Positions 40,593 through 60,508 of a stretch of DNA of 64,000 nucleotides are shown here, piece after piece. Source of the DNA: an uncultured delta proteobacterium (GTDB taxonomy: Bacteria > Desulfobacterota > Desulfomonilia > UBA1062); NCBI GenBank assembly GCA_963785235.1, contig CAWAUM010000007.1, forward strand, positions 64,001 to 128,000, given 5' to 3'. The translations under genes and the position numbers were made by a program. The notes beneath the pieces are model-generated. The model had not been told where the DNA came from and did no database searches. It saw only the letters and a program-made list of their open reading frames with translations. How positions within the stretch are numbered: the first letter of the stretch is position 1; every line of letters begins with the position of its first letter.

Positions 40593-40716
40593 CTGTGGCT
40601 TCTGACAAAGTCGTTGCCTGTATGTTCTCCGAATTCAGATTGCGATAAATCATCGGTTTTTTGAACCCAAGGATCAATAAGAAAACTCCCGAGATTCAGC
40701 GCAGAGGAAACTTATC

Positions 40717-40776
40717 TGAAGAAATTAGGCATCCAGCGTTCCAGCAAGCCTATGCCGCATTAACGTCTATTGCCCA
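40717..40776 (+). repeat. 60-bp direct repeat, copy 2
   Basis: Matches 39731-39790 and continues into the intact palindrome TGCCCATATATTGGCA. Confidence 0.9.
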
Positions 40777-40901
40777 TATATTGGCAGATAATCTCGCTCC
40801 TTCTGCTTTGTCCGTCACACCTTTTTTTATTGAAATCCTCATAACAACAGCGCCTTGACAACATAATCGTCCTCCGCCTTTTTCTTGGCCCGTATCTGGC
40901 A
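40771..40901 (+). promoter_or_regulatory. upstream activating palindrome + sigma54 promoter of the GRE operon
   Basis: TGCCCATATATTGGCA (40771-40786); TGGCCCGTATCTGGCA (40886-40901) has GG and GC at -24/-12 spacing; adjacent sigma54 activator. Confidence 0.75.
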
Positions 40902-41020
40902 ATCTCTTTTCTGTGACATTGAAAACATCCATGAATTAATTTCGATGAAGGCATTGAGGAGTTTCTACCCGGAAGAAGCACAGGCGATCCTTCAGCAATA
41001 TCATAAAAAGGGAGAAGCAT

Positions 41021-41359
41021 ATGATCCTCGCAACCATTAGGATGGCGATACCACCCCAAAAGCGAGCTGAGGCATTGAAAATCATCAGATTGATAGCTGA
41101 TCGATGCAGTGACGATACCGGCTGTCTCGGGTTCCACCTCTATGAGGACCTGCAGGAAAAAAACGTCATCATGCTCGAAGAGGTCTGGAAGGCCCAGGAA
41201 GACCTGGACCTTCATCTTCGCTCGGACGAATACCACAACCTGCTCATGGTTCTGGAAATGGCAGTCAAACAGCCCGAGATCAGGTTCGACACCATCTCCA
41301 GTTCCACGGGCATCGAGACCATTGAAAAGGCAAGGAGCAATGCGAGACAAATATTCTGA
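41021..41359 (+). CDS. ABM (antibiotic biosynthesis monooxygenase / YgiN-like) family protein
   Basis: GCLGFHLYED....N...LEEVW....DL..HLRS pattern of dimeric alpha-beta barrel proteins. Confidence 0.8.
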   Translation: MILATIRMAIPPQKRAEALKIIRLIADRCSDDTGCLGFHLYEDLQEKNVIMLEEVWKAQEDLDLHLRSDEYHNLLMVLEMAVKQPEIRFDTISSSTGIETIEKARSNARQIF

Positions 41360-41450
41360 CATCACCCTCCTTGGAGGGGTGGCTGTGGTGAAATTACTTC
41401 ACGTATTTAGCGAAGTGAAAATATAAGTCAATAATAGGAGGAACATCATT

Positions 41451-42647
41451 ATGGCTAAGGAAACAGAGAAGATTAAAGAGACAACTTTCAAAAACACGAA
41501 ACTGAACCTTGTGAAGCTGGATTGGAAAGAGGTTTACTACACCAACTGTCCGCTGGTGTCTGCCAGCAATGTGGATGAAGGCCTGGGCTTGACCAAGAAG
41601 GAGTTCAAGAAGATCGGCGTGAAGTTTGCCTACATGCGTTCGACCCCTGAAACCGATTGGTATCCCCACTACATTCACAATCAGGAAAATCTTATCCGCT
41701 TCGGCGGTTTGTTTCCGCCCATCGAGGTTCACGCGGACATCCGCCGGACCCGGCTGCTGGGGGTTACGCAGATGCCGGCAGAAGGCGGTGTCATGATGGT
41801 GCGCGCCAAGGACGACATCTACCGGATGGTCGATCTGAAGGGCAAGAAGATCGGCATTTCCAAGAGCATGAACAAGATCAAGAACGACTGGTGGCGCATC
41901 CAGGAGCACCAGGGTATCGAGCTCATGCTCCGGATGAACGGCATGACCATGGACGACATCGAGCTCGTCGAGTTCCCTTACGCGGACGACTGGTATAACG
42001 ATCCGGCGATGATGGTCGCAACCATGGACCTCTCGATTGATCTGTGGCTGAAGCGTGACCACAAGCGCGACTTGGCCTTCCGTCCACTGGAAACCGCACT
42101 GGAAAAGAGGATCATCGATGCGATGTACATGCAAACCAAGCCGCTCCAGCAAGTCTCCGAGGCGACGGGCAAGTTCGCGGCGATCGAGGACCTCTCCCGC
42201 TATCCGGACTGGCGTTTGCAGGTCGCCAACATCCCCGCGGCCATTACGTGCACCGACGTCATGGCCAAGCAGCACCCCGAACTCGCCGTCACGTTCATGA
42301 AAGGCATGATCCGCGCCGGGCGCTGGGCCAACGAGAACAAACGCGCCGCGGCGGAAATCCTCGACCAACAGACCTTCTACAGAGACATCGAGCACACCTA
42401 CCAGGGAATCAGGGACGTGGACTTGGTGCCCAACCTGTCACCACTCAACCTGGCTGCTGTCGAGATCGGCAAGAACTTCATGCTGAGCCACGGCTACATC
42501 AAGAACGACTTCGATGTGCAGAAGTGGGCCGCGCCGGAGTTCCTGGAGAAGGCAGCCAGAGAACTGCTGGAAGAAGAATGGAAGAAAAGAACCACAGCAA
42601 AACTTCCCAAGACGGCTGCGCCGCTTACGGGAGAACGGCTCGGGTAG
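41451..42647 (+). CDS. DszB (aryl-sulfinate desulfinase)-like cytoplasmic protein, SsuA/THI5 periplasmic-binding fold
   Basis: YYTNCPL (Cys33), His73 and Arg83 in RFGG..PP, RTRLLGVT, DLKGKKIGIS, WAAPEFL match recalled DszB motifs; no signal peptide. Confidence 0.78.
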   Translation: MAKETEKIKETTFKNTKLNLVKLDWKEVYYTNCPLVSASNVDEGLGLTKKEFKKIGVKFAYMRSTPETDWYPHYIHNQENLIRFGGLFPPIEVHADIRRTRLLGVTQMPAEGGVMMVRAKDDIYRMVDLKGKKIGISKSMNKIKNDWWRIQEHQGIELMLRMNGMTMDDIELVEFPYADDWYNDPAMMVATMDLSIDLWLKRDHKRDLAFRPLETALEKRIIDAMYMQTKPLQQVSEATGKFAAIEDLSRYPDWRLQVANIPAAITCTDVMAKQHPELAVTFMKGMIRAGRWANENKRAAAEILDQQTFYRDIEHTYQGIRDVDLVPNLSPLNLAAVEIGKNFMLSHGYIKNDFDVQKWAAPEFLEKAARELLEEEWKKRTTAKLPKTAAPLTGERLG

Positions 42648-42752
42648 TCGGGAAGACGCTCGGCACAGGGTGCACGTGCGAGGCAACTGAAGAATCAGCC
42701 ATAATCGCCGACCCGGTGAAGCCAAAATAAAACTGATGAAGGAGGAAACATA

Positions 42753-45185
42753 ATGGAAAAGGCAAAGGATGCAAAGAAGATTTCCACAGGCCGCGTCAAG
42801 GCCGACAAAGACCGGATCGACCGGCTGAAAGAACAACTCAGGAGCACCCCTGCCGAGGTTGATTTTGAGCGGATCAGGATCATGGAGGAGGTTTACGCGG
42901 CCACTCAGGGCGACCAGAATATCATGCGTCGAGCCAAGTTCTATGCCACCCTGCTGGAGCGGAAGAAGATCTACATCGACGACAACTGCTTTGTGGGCAG
43001 CATGGCCGGCACCGTCAACGGCATCTACACGTATCCGGAATGGAACATCGATTGGATGAAGGACGATAATACCGTCGAGAAGTGCAAGGATCCGGTGGAC
43101 AAGAAGGCGAACCAGTGGGCACTCGACTACTGGGACAAGCGCGCCCTGAAACCCCGCACCCTGGAGATCTTCGAGAAGAAGTATGGTTTCGATCCGAAAC
43201 CCTGCTATGAGTCCGGCTTTGTCGTCAGTTTCTTTGACTGGCCGGGTGGTGGCGGCAATCTGAACTACCCCCGGATTTACAACCATGGGCTGGCCGCCAT
43301 GATCAAGGAGGTCGAGGAGCGGCAGGCGGCCCTCGACATGCGGCTGCCCAATGCCAGCAAGCTCTACTTCTATGAAGCCAGCCTCATCGTCATGAGGGCC
43401 ATTGTGCGCCTGGCTCATCGCTATGCCGAGCTGGCCCGGGAAATGGCGAAAAAGGAAAAGAATGAAACCCGCAAGGCAGAGCTGATTGCCATCGCCGAAA
43501 CCATGGAACGAGTTCCCGAGCATCCGGCCCGGAACCTGAGAGAGGCCATCCAATGCCACTTCTTCTGTCACATTTGTGCGGAGCTCGAGCAGGTTGGCTG
43601 CGGTTACTCCGAGGCCTATCTGGGCCAGAACCTTGAGCCCTACTATCAACGCGACAAAGCGGCGGGTCTGGTCGATTACGAACAAGCGACGTTCATGTTC
43701 CAGAATCTCGTGATCAAGCTGAACGAGATCGGCTATTACTTTGGAGAGAAGGTCGCCCTGCAGAACTCGGCCGACCTCGGGCAGAGCGTCTCCCTGGGAG
43801 GCTTTACCGAGGATGGGGAGGATGCCACCGCGGAAATGGACTATGTGGTTCTGGATGCATGCAACTATCTCCACCTGCCGCAGCCTCCGCTGACTTGCGT
43901 CTACACGGAGAGGATGAGCGGCAAATTCCTCGAGAAGGTCCTGGATGTCATCGGCACCGGTATCGGCATGCCTCAGTTGGTAAACGGCAATGTGATGATC
44001 AAACGGGCACTCAATCTATTCGGTGACTCCAAAAAGGGCATCACCCTCGAAAAAGCCAGGCGCACCTGCATCGGCGCATGTGTGGGTTCTTACCCCCCCT
44101 ACGAGACCGGTCACCCGGTGGAAGGCCAGCCCAACCTGGGCAAGGTCATCGAGCTGGTGATGAACAATGGCTTCGATCCTCGCACCAAGAAGCAGGTCGG
44201 ACCCAAGACCGGTGATCCCGAGACCTTCAAAACCTTCGAAGAACTCTACGCGGCATTCCAAAAGCAGATCGATTTCAATGAAGAGGTCCTCCGCCGGGGT
44301 GCCTGGATCGCCAGCATGTTGTGCGCCGACTTCCTCCCGGTTCCTTGGCGCTCGCTCCTGACCGGGGGCTGCATTGAAACGGGCACCGAGGTGTGGAACG
44401 GCGGGGCCAATTACTACACCGTTGCCCAGATTGTGGTGGGGGGCATCGACGCGGCCAACTGTCTCATGGCGGTGAAGAAACTGGTCTACGACGACAAGAA
44501 GATCACCATGGCCGAACTCAAGAAAGCCCTGGCCGCCAACTGGGAGGGGGAATACGAGAAGATTCGGAAGCTGTGTTACGAAGCTCCCAAGCACGGCAAC
44601 GACATCCCTGAAATGAACAGGATGGCGTACAGGGTGTACGAAAGCATCTTCAAGGCTTTCAACAATGTTGACGGCGGCGGCAACTACCTCAGCAAAGACA
44701 TCAAATCAGCGCCGGATGCCTATACCAAGAGCATCCACAACCTGATGGGTATGGTGACCGGGGCTCTGCCCAACGGCAAGAGAGCCGGAGTGGCACTCAC
44801 CGATGGAAGTCTGTCGGCCATGCCGGGAACCGATGTCAGCGGTCCTACCGCGTTGGTGATGTCTGCGGCGAAGGCTCAGGATGCCATCAAGTACACCGCA
44901 ACCCACATGAACATGAAACTCCCGCCTGATCAGCTGAAGACACGCAAGGGCCGGGATAATGTGCTGCGTCTGGTCAAAACCCTGTTTGATAACGATGGCT
45001 ATCACATCCAGTTCAACGTCCTGGATACCAACATCCTCAGGGATGCGCAGAAGCACCCGGAAAACTACCGTGACCTCGTGGTCCGGGTAGCCGGTTTCAG
45101 TGCCTTCTTCACCGCACTGGCTAAGGGCGTACAGGACGAGGTCATTGAGCGCACTTTGCAGTCGTTTGACGGTCAGATGTGCTGA
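42753..45185 (+). CDS. glycyl radical enzyme (PFL-like family), substrate unknown
   Basis: C-terminal HIQFNV...AQKHPENYRDLVVRVAGFS (Gly781); Cys loop CIGACVG (Cys443); APKHGND; GALPNGK; activase nearby. Confidence 0.95.
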   Translation: MEKAKDAKKISTGRVKADKDRIDRLKEQLRSTPAEVDFERIRIMEEVYAATQGDQNIMRRAKFYATLLERKKIYIDDNCFVGSMAGTVNGIYTYPEWNIDWMKDDNTVEKCKDPVDKKANQWALDYWDKRALKPRTLEIFEKKYGFDPKPCYESGFVVSFFDWPGGGGNLNYPRIYNHGLAAMIKEVEERQAALDMRLPNASKLYFYEASLIVMRAIVRLAHRYAELAREMAKKEKNETRKAELIAIAETMERVPEHPARNLREAIQCHFFCHICAELEQVGCGYSEAYLGQNLEPYYQRDKAAGLVDYEQATFMFQNLVIKLNEIGYYFGEKVALQNSADLGQSVSLGGFTEDGEDATAEMDYVVLDACNYLHLPQPPLTCVYTERMSGKFLEKVLDVIGTGIGMPQLVNGNVMIKRALNLFGDSKKGITLEKARRTCIGACVGSYPPYETGHPVEGQPNLGKVIELVMNNGFDPRTKKQVGPKTGDPETFKTFEELYAAFQKQIDFNEEVLRRGAWIASMLCADFLPVPWRSLLTGGCIETGTEVWNGGANYYTVAQIVVGGIDAANCLMAVKKLVYDDKKITMAELKKALAANWEGEYEKIRKLCYEAPKHGNDIPEMNRMAYRVYESIFKAFNNVDGGGNYLSKDIKSAPDAYTKSIHNLMGMVTGALPNGKRAGVALTDGSLSAMPGTDVSGPTALVMSAAKAQDAIKYTATHMNMKLPPDQLKTRKGRDNVLRLVKTLFDNDGYHIQFNVLDTNILRDAQKHPENYRDLVVRVAGFSAFFTALAKGVQDEVIERTLQSFDGQMC

Positions 45186-45197
45186 GATTCAAGTCAA

Positions 45198-45232
45198 CCG
45201 GCACGACGTGGCATAGCGCCACGCCGTGCCGG
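45198..45232 (+). other. intergenic stem-loop after the GRE gene (mRNA stabiliser/attenuator)
   Basis: CCGGCACGACGTGGC-ATAGC-GCCACGCCGTGCCGG, 15-bp stem with one mismatch, no U-tract. Confidence 0.65.
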
Positions 45233-45314
45233 AAGTTCCAAGATGAGTACCAAGGCTCTGCAGGGCGCGAGGCTATTGATGCCTATACAGGAAAATTCAC
45301 ACAGGAGGATTATT

Positions 45315-46490
45315 ATGAGTAAAGAAATAGGTCATGCCAGTTTTCAACGACGCATTGCCATCAATGTGGGTGCCGGCTACGTGCCCGGTATAAATGCTGT
45401 GATAATGGGCGCAAGCCTTGCTGCGAACAAACTGGGATGGGAGATAGTCGGCATCATGGACGGGTTTGAGGGGCTGTTGCACCGGCCTAGCTACCCCAAC
45501 GGCGGGCTGGTGTCACTCAGCCCGCAAATGATTGAGAACCTGGATCCGTCTGCCGGGGGAATCCTGGGCCAAGCGTTGCGGATCGATCCGTTTCATGTCC
45601 GTCGCGTAAATGAAGACGACATGGTAGAAGAAGTCGACGTATCCGATGAACTGATTAGAATACTTCAGGACGAGCAGATCGACGCATTGATTTCAGTTGT
45701 TGGGGGTCAAGGATTAAGTATTCTTTATAAGCTCCATCGTAAAGGGCTCAATACGGTTTGCATCCCCAGATCGATTGAGAACGACATCGCTGCCACAGCG
45801 GTCTCCTTCGGGTTCAACAGCGCCCTGAGTTTTACTATCGAAATGCTGGATCGGGCTCTTCAGGCGGCCCGGGCAGCCCGCAAAATCGCGGTAGTGGAGG
45901 TCTTGGGAGAACAGGCCGGTTGGATTGCATTACAGGCCGGCATTGCAGTTTGTGCCGATGTAGTGCTGATTCCCGAAGTTCCCTGCGATCTGAATGCGGT
46001 TGCATCCAGATTGAAAGAAAAGATGCGATTCAGAAATCATTACGGACTTGTGGTGGTGGCCGAAGGGGCGAAGTTTGTCGATAATACGCAAAGCCAGGCG
46101 GATCCCTCCTCCCTGAAAGCTACTCTCTCGCCGCTGGCAACGGGTGAGGCAAGTGAACATGTCATTTCGCAATCAGGCCAGGCCGCCGCGACAGTGGCAA
46201 CCAGGTTGCAGTTACTGATCGCCGAGGAAATCTATCCGCTGGTAATTGGTCCCTGGGTCAGGGGTGGTACCCCCACTGCTGTCGACCGGCAACTGGGGAT
46301 GGCCTACGGCGCCGGAGCCATTCAGGCGCTGAAAGCCGGGAAAAACGGCGCAATGGTTGCTTTTAATCCACCAGCCATCGAATTTCTGCCTTTGGCAGAA
46401 GCGATCAATAAAGTCAGAACGGTGCCCACAGACAGCCTGTTCGTGAAAATCGCCCAATCGCTCGGCATCTTTCTAGGGAGGGAATTATGA
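45315..46490 (+). CDS. 6-phosphofructokinase-fold protein with non-canonical catalytic motifs
   Basis: [74 protein letters not shown]; RBS AGGAGG. Confidence 0.85.
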
Positions 46491-47450
46491 AAAAACAAAA
46501 CATCAACCCCTCCGATATAACAGGCACAGTGCTGAATATCCAACGATATTGCAGCCACGACGGTCCGGGCATCCGGACAACGGTTTTTCTCAAGGGCTGC
46601 TCTTTGCGCTGCAAATGGTGCGGCAATCCCGAAAGCATTAGCCTGAAGCCGGAAATGTCCTACGACTCCAGGAAGTGCACCGGCAAGAAGTGCGGCCTCT
46701 GCCTGAAGCCGCCGTTTCCTGAAGGCGCCTTCTATTTTGTGGAGGGGGATGATGACCAAAGTAAAAGTCAACTGGCACCTGGCCATGGACATAAATAACG
46801 AACTGGTTTCGCTCTGCCCGACCGGTGCGCTCGAAATGTTCGGCAAACGGATGACCGTCAACGAGGTGCTCGACGAGGTGGAGAAGGATGCCTCCATCTA
46901 CCGCAGTACCGGTGGCGGCATGACGATAAGCGGCGGTGAAGTCATGCTGCAACCCGACTTTGCGGCAGCTTTGCTGCAGGAAGCACACAATCGCGGCCTC
47001 AATACGGCTATAGAAACAGCCTGCAATGCGCCATGGTCCTTCCTTGAAAAAGTACTTCCCCACGTGGATACGATGCTTCACGACAACAAACTGATGAATT
47101 CGGAACGGCACAAAAAGTGGACCGGCGTAGGCAATGAAAGAATTCTGGCGAACTTCAAAAAAGCCTACGAAACGTTCCCCCATGTGGAGTTTATTACCCG
47201 CACACCGCTGATTCCCGGCGTAAACGCCGATGAAGAGCACGTCCGGGCCGTGCTGGCATTCATCAAGCCATATAAAAACGTGATCGACTATGAGCTCTTG
47301 CCCTATCACCGCTTTGGTCTGGGCAAGTATGAACTGTTGGGAGAGGTGTATGAACTGGATGATTACAAAACGCCGTCTGCCGACCTGGTCGCGCACCTGC
47401 AGGCCATCATCGACGAAGCCTTTGGCCGCAGCGGGCCGCAAACAAAATAG
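46487..47450 (+). CDS. glycyl-radical enzyme activase (radical SAM); split by one apparent indel near 46755
   Basis: [27 protein letters not shown]; [37 protein letters not shown]. Confidence 0.93.
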
Positions 47451-47463
47451 AAAGGAAACAATC

Positions 47464-48720
47464 ATGGCCAGACAGAAAGAGAAAAAAAGCATGAAAACTG
47501 AAGGCCGCCAAACACCTCCGAAGAAGCCGGGAGCCGGGAACGGTTCGGGCCGGACAGATGACATTTACGAGCGCCTGGCGGACGCGCTGGACGCGCTTCC
47601 GAGTGGCTTTCCCAGGACGAAATCCGGGGTGGAAATGAAACTGATCAAGATGGCGTTTACGCCCGAGGAGGTAGCCCTTGCCGGTCAGTTGACCCGCTTT
47701 CCCGAGACCGCTGCCGAGATCGCCAAACGGGTCGGCATGGATGAGGCTGACGTAACCGTGTTGTGCGAGAGCTTGATCCCCAGGCGCCTGGTACGTCTCG
47801 ACTCGCCCGGGTATGACATGGCCGGTCAAGATCAGGGTGATGGGGCGAAGAAGTACCGGCTGGGCATGTTCCTGGTTGGCTGGTATGAAGCCAATATGCG
47901 GCTGCTGGGTAAGGAATTTGCCGAGCTCTTCGAGCAATATGTTATTGAAGGCGGCGGTGAAAGAATACTTGCTCCTCGGCCTGGGGTTCTTGGTGTTGTT
48001 CCCGTTCGGGGGTCACTATCGCCAGAACAGATCAAAGTGATGGAACCCCATCTTGATATCGACGCGCATTTCAAACGGCACGAACGATTTGTTGTGTTTG
48101 GCTGCGTATGTAAAAGGGAGCAGGAATTATTGCATGGCCACAGCTGCGATATGCCGATGAAACGCTGCGGTTTTGTAGGCGTCCCACCCCAGACGCCACT
48201 TTCGGAAAACGTGCTTGACCGGGAAGAGGCGGACAAGCTTCTTCGTGAACTGGAGGACATGGGACACGTTCACCTCGCGGCCTATGGATACGTCATGGGC
48301 GCGGAGACTCCTCAGTTTGTCGGAGGGTGTAACTGCTGCGGCTGTTGTTGCGGGGTCCTTCACAGCCAGAAACTCTCCGGCATTTCGGAAGCGGCACAGC
48401 GTTCGAACTACCGCGCCGTCATTGATTCGGAAAAATGCATTTCCTGCGGTCTGTGCATCAAGCGTTGCCCGGTGGACGCCATCTTCGAGGGCCCGAAGCG
48501 CTTGCCCACAGGGCCTCTCTGTGCGGCCGTGGAATTGGAGCCCGGCAAGTCCGAGGTGGACCGGGCCAAGTGCATCGGCTGCGGCGTGTGCGTGATCAAA
48601 TGCCCGACGAATGCGATCGAACTTGTGCCGGTATCGAAAGAAGAATGGTTCCATACTCCTGCCAGCATGGCGGAATGGGAAGAGATGCGCCTTGCGTTTC
48701 TGGCAGCGGAAAAGAAGTAA
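47464..48720 (+). CDS. Cys-rich 4Fe-4S protein (N-terminal winged-helix-like region, CNCCGCCC motif, 2x[4Fe-4S] C-terminus)
   Basis: IYERLADALDALPSGFP, CVCK, GCNCCGCCCGVL, CISCGLCIKRCP, CIGCGVCVIKCP. Confidence 0.85.
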   Translation: MARQKEKKSMKTEGRQTPPKKPGAGNGSGRTDDIYERLADALDALPSGFPRTKSGVEMKLIKMAFTPEEVALAGQLTRFPETAAEIAKRVGMDEADVTVLCESLIPRRLVRLDSPGYDMAGQDQGDGAKKYRLGMFLVGWYEANMRLLGKEFAELFEQYVIEGGGERILAPRPGVLGVVPVRGSLSPEQIKVMEPHLDIDAHFKRHERFVVFGCVCKREQELLHGHSCDMPMKRCGFVGVPPQTPLSENVLDREEADKLLRELEDMGHVHLAAYGYVMGAETPQFVGGCNCCGCCCGVLHSQKLSGISEAAQRSNYRAVIDSEKCISCGLCIKRCPVDAIFEGPKRLPTGPLCAAVELEPGKSEVDRAKCIGCGVCVIKCPTNAIELVPVSKEEWFHTPASMAEWEEMRLAFLAAEKK

Positions 48721-48787
48721 AGCCTGGGCAAACAGGCGGGATGGAAGAACGGCTTCGTTTCGCGAAGGGAATAGGAGGAGAAGCAAG

Positions 48788-50089
48788 ATGAACACAACCG
48801 ACTTGATTACGGCGGAAGTACTGGCCGGGCGGCTCAAGATGGCCGCCGAAGGCATCAAGCAGAAGCCCGGCTTAATGAAGTCCGCCATAGGCTATATGGA
48901 ACTGGTTTATAAGTACGTGGAGCGGATCGTGACGGCCAAAGAAAAGGGCAAATATGTGGTTACCCATGGCACCCAGCAGCCCCTCGAAATTTACGAAGCT
49001 ATGGACATCGTGTGCCTCTTCAACGAGTTCTGGGGTGTCATCTCGGATGTCGTGAACACGGATTCCGTCCCCGCGGCCATGAATATTTCGGCTTCGACCG
49101 GCACACCGCAGGAGGTCTGCTCCTTCTTCCGGAACATGGACGGCCTGCTGCATGCCGGGAAGTGGCCGCATACGGACATGTTTGTCTACGCCACCTCCTC
49201 GTGCGATAACGTTAAGGCGTTCCACACGCTGGGCCGGCGATACGGCATCCCCAGTTTCGGCATGGAGCGGCCCTATTACCCGTTCACACCCCATGCGATG
49301 GAACACTGGAAGAACGAGCACAAGCGTTTGATCGCCTTCCTGGAAGAGCAGACGGGGAAGAGGATGGACTATGACCGTCTCAATGAGACGTTACGCCTCT
49401 CTTACCGTCTTACCGAGATCGCCTGCGAGATCGACAAGCTGGTAGCCCATGTCCCAACTCCCATGTCCCCCGAATGCTTTGGGGGAGTACTGCTGGCGAT
49501 CCGCCTGATGTGCGGGACCCAGGAGGCTGTGGACTACCTGGAATCGCTGAAGGCGGAACTCGAGGAACGGGTGTCCAAGGGCATCGCCGCCGTCGAGCCG
49601 GAACGCTTCCGGGTGATGTGGAGCAGTTTCACCCCGTTCTGGGACCCGGGAATCATGGCCTTCATGCAGGAGAAGTACGGAGCGGTCTCGGTGTGCGAGG
49701 TGCTGCAGCGCTGGCGCGGGGAGGCGAACTGGATGCTGGATCCGGATGATCCGTTGGGCAACCTCGCTTACAAAACTCAGGTCGCACCCGGAAACTGTCA
49801 ATACTCGCCCTCCTTAGATTGGGCCGGGGAAGTCGTCGCGCAGGCCCGCAAATACAAGCCGGACGTGGCGATCTTCAACAACAACCGGGGCTGCAAGCAG
49901 GCTGCGGGCTTGGAACCAATCATCAGGGACGAGCTGCTGCGTCAATGCGGCGTGCCGACCCTCACGCTTGCCGTGGATGTGATTGATGCAACTTTTACCA
50001 GCCGGGCAGAGGTCGAAAGGCAGTTGGACGGCTTTTTTGAAATGATCGAGGGAAGCGAAGCTTACCAGGAAAGGAGGGCAAACGCATGA
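48788..50089 (+). CDS. 2-hydroxyacyl-CoA dehydratase / benzoyl-CoA reductase catalytic subunit (HgdA/FldB/BcrB-like)
   Basis: QEVCSF, TSSCD, IAFLEEQTGKRMDYDRL, ELEERV..G, DDPL..LA, NRGCK, GVPTL....D.ID; RBS AGGAGG. Confidence 0.85.
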   Translation: MNTTDLITAEVLAGRLKMAAEGIKQKPGLMKSAIGYMELVYKYVERIVTAKEKGKYVVTHGTQQPLEIYEAMDIVCLFNEFWGVISDVVNTDSVPAAMNISASTGTPQEVCSFFRNMDGLLHAGKWPHTDMFVYATSSCDNVKAFHTLGRRYGIPSFGMERPYYPFTPHAMEHWKNEHKRLIAFLEEQTGKRMDYDRLNETLRLSYRLTEIACEIDKLVAHVPTPMSPECFGGVLLAIRLMCGTQEAVDYLESLKAELEERVSKGIAAVEPERFRVMWSSFTPFWDPGIMAFMQEKYGAVSVCEVLQRWRGEANWMLDPDDPLGNLAYKTQVAPGNCQYSPSLDWAGEVVAQARKYKPDVAIFNNNRGCKQAAGLEPIIRDELLRQCGVPTLTLAVDVIDATFTSRAEVERQLDGFFEMIEGSEAYQERRANA

Positions 50090-51231
50090 ACCCCCAACTG
50101 CAAGTTCTGAACGAAATGCGGAAAGCGACCTCTCCATTCCCGGAGAGCGTAACCGTCAAGGACTGGAAAGCCTCTGGCCGAAAGGTGATCGGCTGTGTCA
50201 ACCCCTACGTCCCGGAGGAGATCATCCACGCGGCCGGGATGCTTCCATTCAAGATCACCGGTGACAACGAGCCGGTCGAGATGCAGGGGGCCGAGGCCTA
50301 CATCCTCTCCAATACCTGCTCCTACATTCGCACCTGCTGGCAGCTGCAGCTCGACGGCAAGTACGGTTTCCTGGACGGCCTGGTCTTCTCCAACATGTGC
50401 GACCAGGATAAGCGGCTGTACAGCGTGTGGGAGTACTATAAGAAGCTTCCCTACATGGACATCCTCTACGCGCCGCGCAAGCGCGACGAGGAGGCTGTCA
50501 AGCTGTACCTGGCCGATCTCGAGGACTTCAGGGACAGGTTCTCGCTGTACCGGCTGAGCAGGATCACCGACCGGGACGTCGCGGACGCCATCCGCGTCTA
50601 CAACCGGGGACGTGAGCTCATGCATCGTCTCTACGAACTGCGCAAGCGTGATCGCCCACCTGTGACAGGTGCCGAGGCCCTGGAAGTAAGCAAGGCTGCC
50701 GCACGCCTGCCGCGTGAGCGTTTCAACGAGCTGATGGAGCAACTGCTTGACGAGATCCAGCGCACCGGGCGCGAGATCAAGAAGGCCAGGCGCCTGATGG
50801 TCATCGGCAACGATATTCACAACACCAACCAGGTCGCCGCGTTCGAGGAAATGGACGCGCTGGTCGTCGTGGACGAGATGAATTGCGGCATCCGGCAAGC
50901 CCTGGGCCAGGTGGACACCAAGATGCCGCCGATGGAGGCTCTGGCCCGCTACTACGTGATGGGCCGTCCGGTCGACATGCACAACTGGAATTCCGACGGG
51001 CGACTCGCGTTCATTGGCCAGATGGTTGAACAATACAGGGTTGACGGGATTGTGTCCGAGATCGTTCGCTTCTGCACCTACAACGGCTGGGACAAGTTCG
51101 ATCTCAAGAAGCAGATGGAACAGCGCGGCATTCCCATCCTGGATATCGACCTCGAGTACGGCCATCCGGCTGGAGCGCAGGTGAAGACCCGCGCCGAGGC
51201 GTTCATGGAGATGCTGGAAAGCCGAGCCTGA
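50086..51231 (+). CDS. 2-hydroxyacyl-CoA dehydratase / benzoyl-CoA reductase catalytic subunit (HgdB/FldC/BcrC-like)
   Basis: KVIGC...YVPEEIIHAAGMLP, NTCSY, SNMCD, RFC, GIPIL.IDLEY, QVKTRAEAFMEML. Confidence 0.88.
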   Translation: MNPQLQVLNEMRKATSPFPESVTVKDWKASGRKVIGCVNPYVPEEIIHAAGMLPFKITGDNEPVEMQGAEAYILSNTCSYIRTCWQLQLDGKYGFLDGLVFSNMCDQDKRLYSVWEYYKKLPYMDILYAPRKRDEEAVKLYLADLEDFRDRFSLYRLSRITDRDVADAIRVYNRGRELMHRLYELRKRDRPPVTGAEALEVSKAAARLPRERFNELMEQLLDEIQRTGREIKKARRLMVIGNDIHNTNQVAAFEEMDALVVVDEMNCGIRQALGQVDTKMPPMEALARYYVMGRPVDMHNWNSDGRLAFIGQMVEQYRVDGIVSEIVRFCTYNGWDKFDLKKQMEQRGIPILDIDLEYGHPAGAQVKTRAEAFMEMLESRA

Positions 51232-51295
51232 TTTGCAGCAAACACCTCATGACCACGGGTCTGACGAGGCGCAAAAAAGCAGAAGGAGAATTGAA

Positions 51296-51512
51296 ATGGC
51301 AAAGTTAGACGTGAAATTCATTGCCGGAAATGAGGCCCGCCAAGTCAGAAGTGATTCGGGACAAGTGCATCGGCTGCGGGGTCTGCGTGACGGGTTGCCC
51401 AGAGGAGGCGATCGAACTTGTGCCTGTATCGAAAGAAGAATGGTTCCATACTCCCGCCAGCATGGCGGAATGGGAAGAGTTGCGACTGCAGAATATGGCA
51501 TCGAAAAAGTAA
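51296..51512 (+). CDS. small ferredoxin-like paralog of the C-terminus of 47464-48720; probable indel near 51317
   Basis: RBS AAGGAG + ATG at 51296; frame 51321-51512 gives KSEVIRDKCIGCGVCVTGCP..AIELVPVSKEEWFHTPASMAEWEE. Confidence 0.65.
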
Positions 51513-51597
51513 CGAGGTACCCAAAAGCCACGGTTGTGTAATGCCGTTGCTTCGGGAAGGGAAAAGGGGGACCACATACCATGTCAAGGAGAAACAT

Positions 51598-53284
51598 ATG
51601 AAAGTAATAATTGTCGGCGGAGTGGCGGGTGGCGCGTCGTGTGCGGCGCGCCTGCGGAGATTGGATGAAAAGGCGGAAATACTCATGGTGGAACGCGGGC
51701 CGTATGTCTCCTACGCGAACTGCGGGCTTCCCTACCATATCAGCGGCGTGATCGAAAAAGAGGCATGCCTCCTGGTGGCCACGGAAGCGACGTTCCGTGA
51801 GCAGTTCGCAGTGGATTGCCGCACGAACTGCGAGGCGGTCGGGATTGATGCGAAAAAGAAGACCGTGGAGCTGAAGAACCACGCCACCGGCGAGGTGTCC
51901 ACCGAGCACTACGACAAGCTCGTGCTTTCTCCCGGGTCGGCGCCGATCCGTCCGCCACTGCCGGGTATCGACCTCCCGGGGATCTTTTCGGTGCGGACCG
52001 TGCCGGACGCCCGAGACATACGCGCCTGGATTGGACGCAACGACGTGCCGGACCATTCGGAAACAGGCTACCAGGCCGTGACGCCAGCCAAGCGCGCGGT
52101 GGTGATCGGCGGCGGATTCATCGGACTTGAGATGGCCGAGAACCTGGTGCACCTCGGGCTCGAGGTCACCGTGGTTGAGATGCTCGATCAGGTCATGCCC
52201 CCGCTTGATCCGGAAATGGCACGCCTGGTCGAGTCCCACCTGGAGAAGCATGGTGTCCGCCTGGCGCTGGGCGACGCGGTGGCCGGCTTCAGGCAGGCGG
52301 AGCATGGTTCGCTCGAGGTGCTCACGAAATCAGGGAAAACGCATCCGGCGGACATCGTGATCATGGCCATCGGTGTGCGTCCTGAGACTGAGCTGGCAAA
52401 GATGGCCGCCATCGAGATCGGGGAGCGCGGGGGGATCCGCGTGGACGAGCATATGCGCACGAGCGACCCGGATATTTTCGCCGTGGGAGATGCCGTCGAG
52501 GTAAGGGATTTCGTTACAGGCCAGTGGTCGCTCATCCCGCTTGCAGGGCCTGCGAACCGTCAGGGCCGCATCGCGGCTGATGTGATCGTCGGGCGCGACT
52601 CGCGTTACCGGGGCACGCAGGGCACTTCCATCTGTCTCGTCTTCGATGCAGCGGTGGCCTCGACCGGAGTCAGTGAAAAGATCCTTATCAGACTGGGCGA
52701 CACGGATTACGAAAAGATCTATCTCTACCCGAACTCGCACGCAGGGTATTACCCGGGCGCCAAGCTGCTCGCAATAAAAGTCCTGTTCCGGAAATCCGAC
52801 GGCCGTCTCCTGGGCGCGCAGGTGCTCGGCCAGGACGGCGTTACCAAGCGGATCGATTCCTTTGCCATGGCTATCCAGATGGGATGCACCATTTACGACC
52901 TGGAAGAGGCCGAGCTGAGCTACGCGCCCCCGTTCGGCAGCGCCAAGGACCCGGTCAACTTCGCCGGGATGGTGGCCGCTAATATCTTGCGCGGCGACAT
53001 GCCGGTGTGCCCACTGGGATGCGGCGCAGGGAGGGTTCCTCCTCGATGTGCGCAATCCGCCCGAACTGGCCGTTGAGCAGGCGCCGGGTGTGGTCAACAT
53101 ACCGCTGCCGGAGCTCCGTGCACGCCTGGGCGAGCTGCCCCGCGAGCGCGAGATTTTCGTGATCTGCCGCTCGGCCCAGCGCGCCTACTATGCGACGCGC
53201 ATCCTGCTGCAGAACGGGTTCAAGGCCCGCAACATCTCCGGCGGCATGCTGGTGCGTTCGCACCTGGCGGTGGGATGGAAATAA
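51598..53284 (+). CDS. CoA-disulfide/persulfide reductase with C-terminal rhodanese domain (CoADR-RHD/Npsr-like); indel near 53010
   Basis: GGVAGGAS, SYANCGLPY, GGGFIGLEMAE, FAVGDA, LAGPANRQG, HAGYYPG, YAPPFGSAKDP; rhodanese CRSAQR in ORF 53048-53284. Confidence 0.9.
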
Positions 53285-53307
53285 ATAGTGAACGCAAGGA
53301 GCACAAT

Positions 53308-53817
53308 ATGACTGAACAAAATCTTCCCAAAGGAAAACAGACGGTGCTGGGGCTCTATGTGACGGCAAAGGAGGCCTACGAGAAGTGGAAGGCCGAGCCG
53401 GACAGGGTGATGATCCTCGACGTACGCACACCGGAAGAGTACCTCTTCATCGGCCACCCGGCCATGGCCTGGAAGATCCCCATCGCGGCCCAGGAGTATG
53501 AGTGGGACGCCGGCAAGGGGAAGTTCCCCATGAAGCTCCTCACCGATTTCGTTGAGCGGGTGAGCTCCGTGGCCGGGCCAGATGACACGATCCTCGTCAC
53601 GTGTCGCTCCGGCGGCCGCAGCGCCATTGCCGCCAACCTGCTTGCCCAGGCCGGGTACAAGAAGGTCTACAACATCATCGACGGCGTGGAAGGGGACGCG
53701 GTTGAAGATCCTGACAGCGTCTTCCTGGGTCAGCGCCTGAAGAACGGATGGAAGAACTCGGGATGTCCGTGGACATACAAGCTCACGCCCGACAGACTGC
53801 TGCTTCCAAAAGCATGA
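53308..53817 (+). CDS. single-domain rhodanese / sulfurtransferase
   Basis: ILDVRTPEEY..IGH, TCRSGGRS, YNIIDGVEG, GWKNSG.PW. Confidence 0.9.
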   Translation: MTEQNLPKGKQTVLGLYVTAKEAYEKWKAEPDRVMILDVRTPEEYLFIGHPAMAWKIPIAAQEYEWDAGKGKFPMKLLTDFVERVSSVAGPDDTILVTCRSGGRSAIAANLLAQAGYKKVYNIIDGVEGDAVEDPDSVFLGQRLKNGWKNSGCPWTYKLTPDRLLLPKA

Positions 53818-53941
53818 TAGGCGGGCTTGCAGGAGGGACAACAACTTGAAAGGAAAGGGACCATGAGCGATGTAAGGCAGTTCCTTCAGCCCACAGGCCA
53901 TTTAACAGCAATGCATTTTATAATTTGAAAGGAAAAAGATT

Positions 53942-54816
53942 ATGGACATTATGACTTGGTTCAACATCACAGTGGTCGTGTTTACCGTGGCTAATCTGAT
54001 GGCCGGGGGCCTTGAGTGCGATCTGAAAGAAGCGGTCAAGTTGTTGAAAAGCCCCACGCTCTTCGTGCCGACCCTTTTTTGGGGCTGGGTGGCCGGGCCG
54101 GCCCTTGCCTGGCTGATCATCCAAGTGCTTCCGCTGTCGGCGGGACATGCCGCCGGGCTGATGTTGTGCAGCTTGGCGCCCATTGCGCCGTTCCTGCCGC
54201 TGGCGGCGATGAAGGCCCGTGGCGACATGACCTTCACCGGAGCCTACATCCTGCTGGGGACGGTCGTTACCGTCTTGTTGATGCCGCTGATGGCACCTCT
54301 GCTGATCAAGGGGCTGACCTTGAGCACCTGGCCGCTCGCGAAGCCGCTCATCATATTGGTGCTGATTCCTTTGCTGCTTGGCATTGTCATCCGGTTTTAC
54401 AAGCCGGCAGTGGCCGCCAAGATATTTAAACCGGTCAAGAAAACCGGCGGCATCTTCCTGCTGCTCTGCCTGGGGACGTGCCTGTGGATCTACGGCATGC
54501 AAATGCTCGGCACGGTGGGCAGCTTTGCCACGGCCGCTTGGGTCATCTTCATGGTCGTGATGGCCGTGCTGCCGTATCTGATTGGCTTCGGCATGAAACA
54601 GAATCAGCGCAGCGTCATGGCAATCGGCCAGAGCTCGCGGAATATTTCGGCCGGGTTCGTGGCGTTCTTTGGTATTACCAACCCGCCCGAGGGGATGTTC
54701 CTGATGGTTGTGCTGGTGGTTCCGCTGCACGTCATCATCGGGCTCTTATCGGTGCCGCCCATATTCGCCAGGCTGGCCGGCAAGACCGTGAAACCGCTGA
54801 GGAAGTTGCGGCATGA
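53942..54816 (+). CDS. bile acid:sodium symporter (BASS/SBF) family transporter; indel near 54790 hides the stop
   Basis: Multi-TM; MAGGLE, SLAPIAPFLP, LIPLLLG, GQSSRNIS; adding one base restores VETAEEVAA-stop at 54816. Confidence 0.8.
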
Positions 54817-54929
54817 ACATCATCCGGAAGATCTCCAGCCTGCTGCAGCGCGATTTTCCTGGAGTGAGGCACACAAGCATTACGATGAATCTCGAAAAGC
54901 ACAGAAGCTCAGAAATATGGAGGTATGCA

Positions 54930-55757
54930 ATGAGTACGTTCAAATCGACAATGGTCCTGATGGTGTTCCTGGCAACGGCTCTGGCGGCATGGGCGCAGGA
55001 GCCTGCCACGGAAGGGGCAAGCGCGCAGCAGGATCAGGCGGCGGAACTGGCGAAAAAGGCGCAGAATCCGGTAGCGGACCTGATGATCATGCCGCTGCAG
55101 TACAACATCGATTTCGGCATCGGCCCTGCGGACGCGTCCCAGCAGACGCTGAAATTCATGCCGGTCATTCCGTTTTCGCTGGGCACGGAGTGGAACCTGA
55201 TCACCCGCACCATCATACCATGGATCGATGCGGAGTCGCCGGTGGAAGGCGGCGAGGACTATTCCGGTCTGGGCGACATCCAGCAGAGCTTCTTCTTCAC
55301 GCCCAAAGAGCCGGTGGGTGGATGGATCATGGGAGCGGGACCGATCATCCAGTACCCGTCGGCCACCGAAGATGCGCTCGGCAGCGAGAAGTGGGGCGCA
55401 GGGCCCTCGTTCATTGTGCTGAAGCAGAAGAACGGATGGACCATTGGCATGCTCGCGAACCACGTCTGGTCGTTCGCCGGGAATGACGACCGGGAAAATG
55501 TCAACGTGACGTTCCTGCAGCCGTTCCTCGCCAAGACAACGAAGACCTATACGACGTTGTCCGTGAACACGGAGTCGATCTATGACTGGAAAAACAGCCA
55601 GTGGACGGTCCCCATCAACGTCTCCCTCGGACAGATGATCAAGGTCGGGAAGCTACCCATCAGTCTGGAGCTCGGCTACCGCTATTACGCGGAAAAGCCC
55701 GACGGCGGCCCGGATTGGGGGCTGCGCGCCTTCGTCAAGTTCCTGTTCCCGAAATAG
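54930..55757 (+). CDS. outer-membrane beta-barrel channel (AELAKKAQNPVADL family, MetA-pathway/CoxB-like)
   Basis: Signal peptide, PVIPFSL..EWNLITRTIIP, GLGDIQQSFFF, LGSEKWGAGP, WTVPIN, ends FLFPK; RBS GGAGG. Confidence 0.8.
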   Translation: MSTFKSTMVLMVFLATALAAWAQEPATEGASAQQDQAAELAKKAQNPVADLMIMPLQYNIDFGIGPADASQQTLKFMPVIPFSLGTEWNLITRTIIPWIDAESPVEGGEDYSGLGDIQQSFFFTPKEPVGGWIMGAGPIIQYPSATEDALGSEKWGAGPSFIVLKQKNGWTIGMLANHVWSFAGNDDRENVNVTFLQPFLAKTTKTYTTLSVNTESIYDWKNSQWTVPINVSLGQMIKVGKLPISLELGYRYYAEKPDGGPDWGLRAFVKFLFPK

Positions 55758-55782
55758 GCTTACGAGTAAAGGAGACTTTTCG

Positions 55783-58596: not shown

Positions 58597-59643
58597 ATGA
58601 AAGCGATTACAGTAGAACCCGGAAAGGCCGGGACAGTCCGGTACGAAGATTTTCCGGAGCCCGATGTGCGTGAGGGCTCGGTCCTGGTTGAAGCCATTGC
58701 CGCCGCTGTCTGTGGGACAGACATCGAGATTGCCGAAGGGAAATACGGCTGGGCGCCTCCGGGAAATACGCGTCTGATACTGGGACATGAATCGCTGGGC
58801 CGCGTCATCGATCCGGGTCCAAACAGCTCATTCAAAAAGGGTGACCTGGTGTCCGGGATGGTCCGGCGACCGGACCCGGTTCCCTGCCCCAATTGTGCGG
58901 TAGGCGAGGCTGATATGTGCAGCAACGGCCAGTACACCGAGCGGGGAATCAAGGAAATCCACGGGTTCATGTCGGAACGGTGGCGCATCGAACCGGAATA
59001 CGCCATCAAGGTGGACCCAACGCTGGGAATCCTCGGCGTGCTTCTCGAGCCGACAACGGTGATCATAAAAGCATTGGAGCAGGTCCAAGCGGTGGGACAA
59101 CGATCCTTCTGGGAACCCAAGACCCTGCTCGTGACCGGAGCGGGACCGATTGGTCTCCTGGCGGCCGCTGTAGTAAGTCTTACAGAAATCGAGGTCCATG
59201 TCCTCGATCGTAACAAAACCGGACCGAAGCCGGAACTCGTGGCCGCCCTCGGTGCGACGTATCACTCCGGGAGCATGTTGGATCTCGGATTCGAGCCGGA
59301 CGTCATCGTCGAGTGTACGGGTGCGGGATCGGTGATTGCGGACTCGATCCAGAAGATCGGAGCGGGCGGGATCGTCTGCCTCACCGGCGTCGGAGCGGGC
59401 GGTGTCGCCAGCCGGGCCGTAGGGGACGTCGCGGCGGCAGCGGTCCTGAAGAACAATGTGATTGTCGGCAGCGTGAATGCCAACAAGCGCCACTGGTACA
59501 AGGCGAATGACAGGTTGGGCCGACTGGACCGGGCATGGCTGAGCCGCCTGATCACCCGCTATGAAAAGCCGGAGAATTTCAGTCAGGCCCTGAAGAGAGG
59601 ACCCGATGACATCAAAATTGTCATAGAGTTTTCAAAGATATGA
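58597..59643 (+). CDS. Zn-dependent MDR glucose 1-dehydrogenase-like protein
   Basis: CGTD, GHESLG, VRRP..CPNC...C, YTERGI, LLEP, GAGPIG, GSVNAN. Confidence 0.85.
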   Translation: MKAITVEPGKAGTVRYEDFPEPDVREGSVLVEAIAAAVCGTDIEIAEGKYGWAPPGNTRLILGHESLGRVIDPGPNSSFKKGDLVSGMVRRPDPVPCPNCAVGEADMCSNGQYTERGIKEIHGFMSERWRIEPEYAIKVDPTLGILGVLLEPTTVIIKALEQVQAVGQRSFWEPKTLLVTGAGPIGLLAAAVVSLTEIEVHVLDRNKTGPKPELVAALGATYHSGSMLDLGFEPDVIVECTGAGSVIADSIQKIGAGGIVCLTGVGAGGVASRAVGDVAAAAVLKNNVIVGSVNANKRHWYKANDRLGRLDRAWLSRLITRYEKPENFSQALKRGPDDIKIVIEFSKI

Positions 59644-60448: not shown

Positions 60449-60508
60449 ACGGCCTGTGGTTTGTGAATCAGTTTGAAAAAAGCTCAATAAAACTTTAAAG
60501 GAAGTACT

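Follow-up and report, generated by a model that had tools for sequence, protein, structure and literature searches.

The stretch of DNA considered here (the window: 64,000 nt of contig CAWAUM010000007.1 from an uncultured delta proteobacterium, in whose numbering the array and all coordinates are given) carries a co-directional array of + strand genes that, by its list of open reading frames (ORFs), Pfam and NCBIfam, spans 41021 to about 60498 and includes the gene for a glycyl radical enzyme (GRE) of an uncharacterised clade (Table 1). An initial annotation had read thirteen genes of this array as a closely spaced candidate operon behind a sigma54 promoter, ending at 55757 and proposed to serve oxygen-independent desulfurisation or radical activation of an organosulfur acid. 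All 13 named genes are present, on the + strand and in the order then given (Pfam, NCBIfam, translations), and the intergenic distances are indeed short, ranging from a 4-base overlap up to about 125 nt. This thirteen-gene anatomy needs redrawing in four respects only: the status of the Hgd pair, the nature of the mini-ferredoxin, frame breaks that had gone unnoticed, and the 3' limit, as the array continues past 55757 into genes for a GH63-like glycoside hydrolase, a Zn-dependent dehydrogenase and a split MIP-family channel. The array is one copy of an island that is real, conserved and horizontally spread, and that is undescribed in the literature searched by title and abstract.

Table 1. 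Features of the array and its upstream region in window coordinates. The last column gives the number of long-flank loci (the 39 related loci with at least 8 kb on either side of the GRE gene) in which the feature occurs.
Feature	Coordinates	Strand	Basis or remark	Long-flank loci
GAF-domain ORF, 194 aa	36900..37484	+	Pfam GAF weak, E 7e-4; directly upstream of activator	
Sigma54-dependent activator: PAS, AAA+ sigma54-interaction, Fis-type helix-turn-helix	37414..39777	+	Pfam	
Sigma54-type -24/-12-like GG-N10-GC element TGGCCCGTATCTGGCA	40886..40901	+	135 nt 5' of ABM start	
ABM-domain protein, 112 aa	41021..41359	+	PF03992, 44 bits	
DszB-like putative desulfinase, 398 aa, cytoplasmic	41451..42647	+	DszB sole PDB match, E 1.2e-12	22/39
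GRE, 810 aa, uncharacterised clade	42753..45185	+	PFL-like PF02901, 485 bits; Gly_radical PF01228, 95 bits	
Pseudo-phosphofructokinase (fold without kinase motifs)	45243..46490	+	PF00365, 204 bits, below all NCBIfam phosphofructokinase cut-offs	
GRE activase, radical SAM, two frames (46487-46798, 46737-47450)	46487..47450	+	Pfam, NCBIfam, tblastn	
Cys-rich Fe-S protein	47464..48720	+	Fer4 families; helical N-terminal domain, six Cys, two 4Fe-4S motifs	25/39
HgdA/BcrB-like subunit, accessory	48788..50089	+	PF06050, 189 bits	1/39 (Hgd pair)
HgdB/BzdN-like subunit, accessory	50086..51231	+	PF06050, 266 bits; BzdN 8s02, E 2e-40	1/39 (Hgd pair)
'Mini-ferredoxin', 63-aa Fer4 ORF	51321..51512	+	duplicated 3' end of Fe-S protein gene	
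CoADR-rhodanese (Npsr/CoA-persulfide-reductase type)	51598..53284	+	PDB 3icr, 3ntd, 8a56; frame change ~53006	23/39 (CoADR)
Single-domain rhodanese	53275..53817	+	PF00581, 53 bits; active-site loop CRSGGRS	25/39 (rhodanese domain)
BASS-family anion symporter	53942..54787, end uncertain (frame open to 55486)	+	PF01758, 60 bits	21/39
COG4313-type outer-membrane beta-barrel channel	54813..55757, probable start 54930	+	fold match	16/39
GH63/MGH1-like glycoside hydrolase, 909 aa	55783..58512	+	PF22422, 67 bits; PF03200, 30 bits	9/39
Zn-dependent dehydrogenase, glucose-dehydrogenase type	58597..59643	+	PF16912, 203 bits	12/39
MIP-family channel, two frames, break ~60050	59640..60498	+	TIGR00861; tblastn with L025 protein	

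The fixed core of the island consists of the GRE, its radical-SAM activase and a protein with the fold of a phosphofructokinase (PFK). A scan of one genome per species yielded 75 loci, in 69 of which the GRE is at least 60% identical to that of the window; the PFK-like gene and the activase gene each occur in 61 of the 69, invariably on the GRE strand, with the activase gene directly behind the PFK-like gene in 55 of 58 loci and the PFK-like gene behind the GRE gene in 44 of 56. Recurrence on this scale removes the concern, raised with the initial annotation, that the array is a chance mosaic. Several of the other partners named there also recur, namely the DszB-like protein, the CoADR-rhodanese, the rhodanese, the BASS symporter and the channel, whereas the Hgd/Bcr-type pair rarely does. 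At least one of the DszB-like, CoADR and rhodanese genes lies within 10 kb of the GRE gene in 30 of the 39 long-flank loci, nearly always on the GRE strand. Gene order outside the core is highly variable, and the exact arrangement of the window and of the initial annotation, with the DszB-like gene directly 5' of the GRE gene, recurs in only 1 of 34 loci holding both. When all ORFs were clustered without regard to the expected partners, a SulP permease (23 loci, exceeding the TIGR00815 cut-off) and LuxR-type regulators also emerged. A small cupin ORF, examined with Pfam, lies in four loci. A sister GRE clade at 49-50% identity (L062:4325-13713 and G117:C445) has the same company in locus L062, which holds PFK-like (52% identity), activase, DszB-like (65%), rhodanese, BASS, GH63-like and dehydrogenase genes, which indicates that the partner set is older than the highly conserved GRE clade itself. 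Desulfosarcina alkanivorans PL12 (L060) has two 48-49% identical GRE paralogues together with a sigma54 activator and an activase; no PFK-like gene was found there within 10 kb.

By the titles of their records, the carriers belong to about ten phyla and include delta-proteobacteria/Desulfobacteraceae, Acidobacteriota, Bacteroidota, Verrucomicrobiota, Chloroflexota, Actinomycetota, Beta- and Gammaproteobacteria, Ignavibacteriota, Calditrichia and Hydrogenedentes, with one cultured organism among them, Flavihumibacter profundi KCTC 62290 (locus L029). Carriers are rare in the window's own phylum: of 401 genomes sampled there, 3 yielded the family GRE, and two genomes of the same genus did not; the PFK-like gene adjoins the GRE gene in both of the other carriers from this phylum. 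The island has a G+C content of 55-61%, against a genome mean of 51.6% (standard deviation 3.8 in 5-kb windows). Nucleotide identity to the closely related locus L054 is 97% across the GRE gene, 75% across the PFK-like and activase genes (45303-47434) and 96% across the Fe-S protein and Hgd genes, a mosaic that points to probable recombination between island variants. Islands with differently ordered genes occur alongside it in these sediments, because single metagenome contigs join gene ends that are not adjacent in the window: at one joint the DszB-like gene is followed at once by the beginning of the CoADR gene (42647/51586), and at another the CoADR-rhodanese gene by the beginning of the GRE gene (53251/42803). 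As for the hosts, dsrA was detected in 5 of 44 genomes (four above the cut-off, one split) and was not found in the window's own genome, which is 93% complete, so that the island appears not to serve sulfite respiration in the way that IslA does in Bilophila. The window's own genome has at least seven further GRE paralogues of about 30% identity (contigs C1, C7, C9, C12 and C13) and 16 matches to BcrAD/BadFG activator ATPases, and so would seem to belong to an anaerobe well supplied with radical enzymes and ATP-driven reductive ones.

Judged by its motifs, the central protein is a GRE, yet one that falls outside every studied class by the features that define those classes. Its family comprises 159 sequences that are 76-97% identical to the window GRE across phyla. 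The two domains of the superfamily are present, the glycyl radical site G781 lies in an RVAGF motif conserved in the 159 sequences, and the thiyl residue C443, which aligns to HypD Cys434, is invariant in all 159, as are C272, C283, C540 and C608; a further loop cysteine, C439, four residues before C443, occurs in 131 of the 159. The cysteine loop reads A-C443-V-G445 within an invariant GACVGSY, and thus departs from the CXE motif which, in the sections available of a 2026 review of GREs (PMC13450708), is retained by all C-O, C-N and C-S eliminases and isomerases of the superfamily. With every NCBIfam equivalog the GRE scores under half of the cut-off (HypD NF043068, 488 of 1100 bits; indoleacetate decarboxylase, 420 of 1100; HpsG-type, 413 of 1000; CutC, 395 of 1050), which answers the doubt whether it might belong to an already characterised cluster. 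The residue before C443 is an alanine, so that the adjacent cysteine pair of pyruvate formate-lyase is lacking (TIGR01255, 87 bits against a cut-off of 994), and no genes for the small beta and gamma subunits of X-succinate synthases lie beside the GRE gene, whose activase scores 116 bits against 496 for TIGR04003. A term search of the full text of the same review (PMC13450708) returned no mention of a PFK, sulfinate or rhodanese partner, a result that extends to these terms, and in the literature judged by title and abstract no GRE is described whose partners include a PFK-like protein, a DszB-like protein or a rhodanese.

Among solved structures, the best relative is HypD (6vxc, E 1.3e-119), followed by CutC, diol dehydratase, HpzG (8iof) and glycerol dehydratase. 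With HypD and the PFL2-type eliminases and isomerases (glycerol and propanediol dehydratases, CutC, HpyG/HpzG, HplG, YbiW, PflD) the island GRE shares fold, length, the glycyl radical motif, the catalytic cysteine and an activase of its own with a ferredoxin-like insert. It differs from them in having C-V-G in place of C-X-E, in an obligatory PFK-like neighbour, which is reported for none of those systems, and in the replacement of all four acid/base residues of HypD. These residues, His160, Asp278, Asp339 and Glu436, are essential by mutagenesis according to the portions of PMC7077986 available, and in a phmmer alignment (chain numbering is native + 20) their places are taken, in that order, by G168 (part of the invariant loop WPGGGGN), C283, a gap and G445, and those of the HypD carboxylate ligands Ser334, Tyr450 and Thr645 by S339, Q459 and K659.

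Two further groups of GREs can be compared with the island enzyme. Like the sulfite-lyases IslA/IseG and HpsG, which release sulfite from organosulfonates without oxygen, the island enzyme is a homologous GRE (7kq3, 5ymr and 6lon, E 1e-76 to 1e-85) in a sulfur-related neighbourhood; unlike them, it lacks the CXE glutamate and is accompanied by PFK-like, DszB-like and CoADR-rhodanese partners, and whereas they supply sulfite respiration, no dsrA was detected in 39 of the 44 island hosts. In GRE C-S lyases the sulfonate is held by an Arg/Gln/Arg clamp (PMC13450708, in part). Through the HypD alignment alone, K659 falls at HypD Thr645, and a match to IslA Arg678 would be an estimate from spacing to the catalytic cysteine. 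The second group is that of the arylacetate decarboxylases (HPAD, AAD, PhdB, IAD), of which HPAD employs Glu505 and Glu637, has Fe-S accessory subunits and resembles the island GRE less in sequence (2y8n, E 2e-69). Its thiyl radical strips CO2 from a benzylic carbon in a Kolbe-type one-electron step (PMC13450708, in part), and loss of SO2 from a sulfinate would, by chemical inference only, be the sulfur analogue of this reaction.

The invariant C283 invites another interpretation, in which the GRE would work reductively, as class III ribonucleotide reductases do: C443 and C283 would form a redox pair that is oxidised at each turnover and re-reduced by the Cys-rich Fe-S protein together with its PFK-like partner, or by the CoADR-type flavoprotein, the net result being reductive loss of a sulfur or oxygen leaving group. 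In class III ribonucleotide reductases, an active-site cysteine pair is re-reduced by formate or thioredoxin (PMC13450708, in part). A cysteine at a catalytic position (that of HypD Asp278) in an enzyme with no acid/base glutamate would suit such a cycle, as would the frequency among the long-flank loci of the Fe-S protein, with its six extra conserved cysteines, and of a pyridine-nucleotide disulfide reductase (Table 1). We nevertheless regard it as improbable, because the proximity of C283 and C443 rests on one pairwise alignment and the predicted fold of the Fe-S protein (mean pLDDT 55) is too poor to interpret. In addition, relatives of the CoADR-rhodanese reduce small persulfides and not protein disulfides.

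Directly upstream of the GRE gene lies the gene for the putative desulfinase. Like DszB, the 2'-hydroxybiphenyl-2-sulfinate desulfinase of the aerobic 4S pathway, it appears to be a cytoplasmic protein with the periplasmic-binding-protein fold in which an active-site histidine and arginine are aligned; it has no signal peptide and a weak likeness to NMT1/SsuA. The match to DszB (structures 2de2 and 2de3) consists of two short stretches, in which DszB His60 and Arg70 are matched by H73 and R83. Across 24 members of the family, conservation is at least 90% at three motifs, TNCP (C33), PHY (H73) and RFGG (R83), and the TNCP cysteine is invariant. C33 stands 40 residues before H73, and the printed DszB alignment begins after it; a similar motif, we take it, surrounds DszB Cys27. 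That cysteine is described as the proton donor of DszB in the portions of PMC6100217 available. The genetic settings of the two proteins are different, since DszB sits with the monooxygenases DszA and DszC and the island homologue beside a GRE in anaerobes. Homologues of the island protein fall into 3024 clusters, the best 120 of these 3024 being 76-94% identical to it, and the only database name of the family is 'ABC transporter substrate-binding protein'.

Handling of persulfide is indicated by two further genes. The CoADR-rhodanese gives a strong, full-length match to CoADR-rhodanese, Npsr and CoA-persulfide reductase (3icr, the CoADR-RHD of B. anthracis, E 1.7e-141; 3ntd, from Shewanella, E 3.9e-139; 8a56, a CoA-persulfide reductase, E 1.1e-124), with both cysteine loops in place (SYANCGLPY in the CoADR part and VICRSAQRA in the rhodanese part), whereas it scores 461 bits against the CoADR family model TIGR03385, whose cut-off is 578.8, and its gene is in two frames in the window. 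The CoADR ORF runs from 51598 to 53076 and the rhodanese domain continues in the next frame (53009-53284), so that the frame change interrupts what other loci encode in one ORF of about 564 aa; the metagenome contigs contain no insertion or deletion near 53006. Of 17 loci with both a single-domain rhodanese gene and a DszB-like gene, 6 have the two no more than 400 nt apart.

The third member of the core has the PFK fold over its full length (best kinase in the PDB: 1zxx, E 3e-30), and differs from the ATP- and PPi-dependent phosphofructokinases of the PfkA family in that the nucleotide, Mg and catalytic motifs are replaced: GGD by GAG[YF], GGDG by GG[QRK..]G, PGTIDND by PRSI[ED]ND, MGR by [LQI]G-x and GH..RGG by GPW.RGG. 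Neither GGD nor GGDG occurs in any of 69 PFK-like sequences, and the replacements are family-wide (69 of 69). An ordinary PFK homologue, 30% identical, is encoded elsewhere in the genome. The PFK-like gene always adjoins an Fe-S protein gene, that of the Cys-rich protein in 20 of 31 loci, and many loci from Bacteroidales and Chloroflexia contain additional PFK-like paralogues (a second or third copy) placed directly 5' of an Fe-S protein gene. The Cys-rich protein itself has invariant C214, C216, C235, C289, C291 and C296 in addition to its eight ferredoxin cysteines (31 sequences), and a search of the protein atlas with its N-terminal part returned unnamed or ferredoxin clusters only. Predicted complexes of activase and PFK-like protein (the L054 pair, with alignment input) scored 0.44, 0.50 and 0.40; as one unrelated control scored 0.59, these values speak neither for nor against a complex.

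The activase gene is broken in the window. Residues 1-91 of the intact L054 activase match one frame and residues 91-318 the next (tblastn), and the break, at about 46755, falls in a run of five G. We read it as probably an assembly error, because of this run, because metagenome contigs from two sediment DNA runs have one base missing at 46754 or 46756, and because the activase is a single ORF, of median length about 321 aa, in 54 other loci. The GRE or PFK-like genes are likewise split in many metagenome-assembled loci (L014, L016, L043, L047, L061), and frame breaks seem common in metagenome assemblies of this kind. If the breaks at about 46755, 53006 and 60050 and perhaps one in the regulator were real, the window would hold a decaying, non-functional copy of the island. 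Such decay is very improbable, and the breaks are probably errors of assembly: they lie in or beside short homopolymers, the contigs just mentioned argue for error at the first of them, similar splits recur in many metagenome-assembled loci, and the remaining genes are full length, the GRE being 97% identical to that of L054. In seven loci, including L029, L030 and L040, a SAM synthetase-like ORF, judged by its N-terminus only, lies a few genes from the activase gene.

Uptake of an anion would be served by two of the remaining genes. The carrier has the SBF domain of the BASS family, is 90% identical to residues 1-282 of a 294-aa protein of locus L021 and scores 27 bits against TIGR00841, whose cut-off is 326. 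A reading of carrier, aquaglyceroporin and rhodanese as an arsenic locus with an ACR3-like carrier was rejected, as the carrier matches the BASS model only and no ars-type family turned up. The outer-membrane channel of the initial annotation is borne out by modelling: the AlphaFold model (pLDDT 77.5) predicts a signal helix followed by about 14 strands, and its best fold match is the COG4313 barrel 4rl8 (TM 0.62-0.64, E 1e-7). By sequence the channel has no Pfam match up to E 10, and a BLASTP comparison with the PF13557 member of locus L009 was empty. COG4313 channels are proposed for hydrophobic solutes.

Taken together, the island contains parts for anion uptake, two candidate C-S cleaving enzymes (the GRE and the DszB-like protein) and persulfide handling, with no enzyme for a carbon product. 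From these parts we would read a mobile sulfur island for the oxygen-free removal of sulfur from an organosulfur anion, a reading to which we give a probability of roughly one half. The sulfur would serve supply or detoxification rather than respiration, and the substrate may be an aromatic or otherwise inert organosulfur acid, as the initial annotation proposed, a direction in which the COG4313 fold and the DszB likeness both lean. An amphiphilic or aromatic organosulfur anion would enter through the channel and a carrier (BASS or SulP), and its C-S bond would be cut without oxygen. The GRE might do this by a radical step that needs no glutamate base, such as desulfination of a sulfinate, in which one-electron or hydrogen-atom abstraction would be followed by loss of SO2, or alternatively by beta-scission of a sulfonate without a neighbouring hydroxyl, a sulfite radical leaving; the absence of the glutamate fits a substrate that requires no hydroxyl deprotonation. 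The DszB-like enzyme could contribute a hydrolytic desulfination, and sulfite and sulfane sulfur may be handed on by the rhodaneses and the CoADR-rhodanese to be kept or detoxified. A rhodanese encoded beside the DszB-like gene could convert a thiosulfonate to a sulfinate or trap sulfite as thiosulfate, and the PFK-like protein may act as a non-catalytic helper of the Fe-S proteins, that is, of the activase and the Cys-rich protein. A bolder version, which we consider rather unlikely, is that the GRE founds a new mechanistic class of glutamate-free radical C-S lyases or desulfinases, taking SO2 or sulfite from sulfinates or from sulfonates without a neighbouring hydroxyl, either as a sulfur counterpart of the Kolbe-type arylacetate decarboxylases or by beta-scission with release of a sulfite radical; that the kinase-dead PFK, a new kind of accessory subunit, docks on the ferredoxin-like parts of activase and Fe-S protein; and that the whole, with the DszB-like desulfinase and the persulfide enzymes, amounts to a widespread oxygen-independent recovery of sulfur from refractory organic matter in low-sulfate anoxic soils and sediments.

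Several observations weigh against a role in sulfur removal. All of the chemistry is read from neighbours and motifs. None of the sulfur genes occurs in every locus: the DszB-like gene, for one, is absent from 17 of the 39 long-flank loci and was not found in the two other genomes of the window's phylum that hold the GRE. The overall likeness to DszB is weak (E 1e-12), and its alignment does not extend to the island cysteine that may correspond to Cys27. The activase and CoADR-rhodanese genes of the window are broken as read, and support for an error exists for the activase only. The partners could also accompany the GRE merely because the island moves as a block, and as the loci share recent ancestry, to judge by the high identity across phyla, they are not independent and the co-occurrence counts overstate selection. 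Much of this would be expected if the chemistry of the GRE were free of sulfur and the sulfur genes and anion carriers were a co-transferred module against sulfide, persulfide or sulfite stress, with which the variable gene order, the rare adjacency of DszB-like and GRE genes, the persulfide reductases (so named in the PDB) to which the CoADR-rhodanese is related and the huge size of the DszB-like family also agree. This alternative is unlikely all the same, given how regularly at least one of the three sulfur enzymes lies near the GRE gene and on its strand, that the island has no gene for the carbon product of such a GRE, and that the sister clade (L062, 49% identity) keeps the partner set.

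The recurring sugar-type genes, that is, the GH63-like, dehydrogenase, MIP, G6PDH-like and PGI-like genes, are likewise not explained by sulfur alone. The GH63-like gene begins 25 nt 3' of the channel gene, and its product has no PDB and no NCBIfam match; the dehydrogenase gene follows 84 nt 3' of it on the same strand. In locus L025 the GH63-like, dehydrogenase and MIP channel genes lie within the island, between the Fe-S protein gene and the CoADR gene, and G6PDH-like ORFs in four loci and PGI-like ORFs in three were recognised by their N-terminal sequences. These genes allow for a pathway for a sulfosugar or another sugar, in which the GH63-like enzyme would free a sugar (for example, sulfoquinovose from its glycerol glycoside), the dehydrogenase and the GRE would act next, and the PFK-like protein would bind or phosphorylate a 6-sulfo analogue of fructose 6-phosphate; GREs acting on sugar phosphates do exist (YbiW and PflD; PMC13450708, in part). 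We find it distinctly unlikely, however. The PFK-like protein is without ATP and Mg motifs in all 69 sequences, the known sugar-acting GREs keep the CXE motif that the island GRE lacks, some three quarters of the long-flank loci lack the sugar genes, the window holds no sulfoglycolysis isomerase or aldolase, and a literature search by titles and abstracts found no system of GRE, PFK and sulfoquinovose.

If sulfur removal is indeed what the island does, it would touch on a gap in anaerobic metabolism. Aerobes recover sulfur from sulfonates and sulfinates by oxygen-dependent enzymes (SsuD, TauD and the Dsz system); for anaerobes, to our knowledge, few GRE sulfite-lyases have been described, all of them acting on small hydroxy-sulfonates. 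The GRE clade is a concrete candidate for the missing anaerobic organosulfur chemistry, since it is 76-97% identical over about ten phyla, has no catalytic glutamate and is found alongside a desulfinase look-alike and persulfide enzymes. The PFK-fold partner, should its proposed role be true, would add a new type of accessory protein for radical-SAM activases. There is also a warning for annotation, in that genes of the PFK-like family are labelled as phosphofructokinases and those of the DszB-like family as transporter binding proteins. The cultured carrier, Flavihumibacter profundi, makes the question testable.

Among the genes of the window that lie outside the conserved set, the Hgd/Bcr-like pair is a lineage-specific add-on. 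The initial annotation had counted it among the partners, and it recurs in 2 of 69 other loci. By NCBIfam and PDB matches it belongs to the BzdN/HadC/double-cubane family; both HGD-D subunits are present, and the locus has no activator ATPase, 16 BcrAD_BadFG matches lying elsewhere in the genome. An actinomycete locus (L043:17370-18947) has an Hgd-like pair followed by a BcrAD/BadFG ATPase, with a rhodanese fragment at the ATPase end. What had been taken for a mini-ferredoxin gene is a remnant of a duplication, because the Hgd genes are bracketed by two direct copies, each 184 nt long and 82% identical, of the Fe-S protein gene's 3' end (48531-48714 and 51326-51509); the layout in L054 is the same.

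The signals for regulation are mixed. Of the proposed sigma54 promoter and activator, the activator is clear (Sigma54_activat, 241 bits; PAS_3, 63 bits; HTH_8, 35 bits; Pfam) and a -24/-12-like element is present, for which L008, L037 and L038, out of ten related loci, have a counterpart at positions -113 to -132 relative to their ABM gene, whereas the pattern itself occurs at chance level: a loose sigma54 consensus with two mismatches was found 67 times in the window against 65 expected from shuffles, with no enrichment. Homologous regulators lie 5' of the GRE gene in 9 of 69 loci (at least 30% identity and at least half coverage), or in 20 loci by ORF clustering. The GAF-domain ORF is matched by the longer regulators of loci L008 and L021 (tblastn) in a frame different from that of the activator, of which it may be the detached N-terminus, or else a duplicated sensor domain. 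In a promoter and terminator scan of 40700-60650, counts were at shuffle level and no prominent intergenic terminator appeared. Contigs at least 90% alike from the RNA libraries X17 and X18 span all 30 bins; the coverage was set aside as proof of transcription or co-transcription, as these contigs are of mixed relatives, DNA carry-over is possible and depths cannot rank genes. The first gene of the array, that for the ABM-domain protein, lies within 400 nt 5' of the GRE gene in 5 of 9 loci holding both. Between activator and array, at 39922-40592, the window has a Phd/YefM-type antitoxin ORF (84 aa) and a PIN toxin (139 aa, PF01850, 59 bits), a pair seen at that position in none of the related loci. 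Just beyond the island, at 62586-63035, lies a gene for a DUF202 (YidH-like) membrane protein, relatives of which are found inside the island in six other loci.

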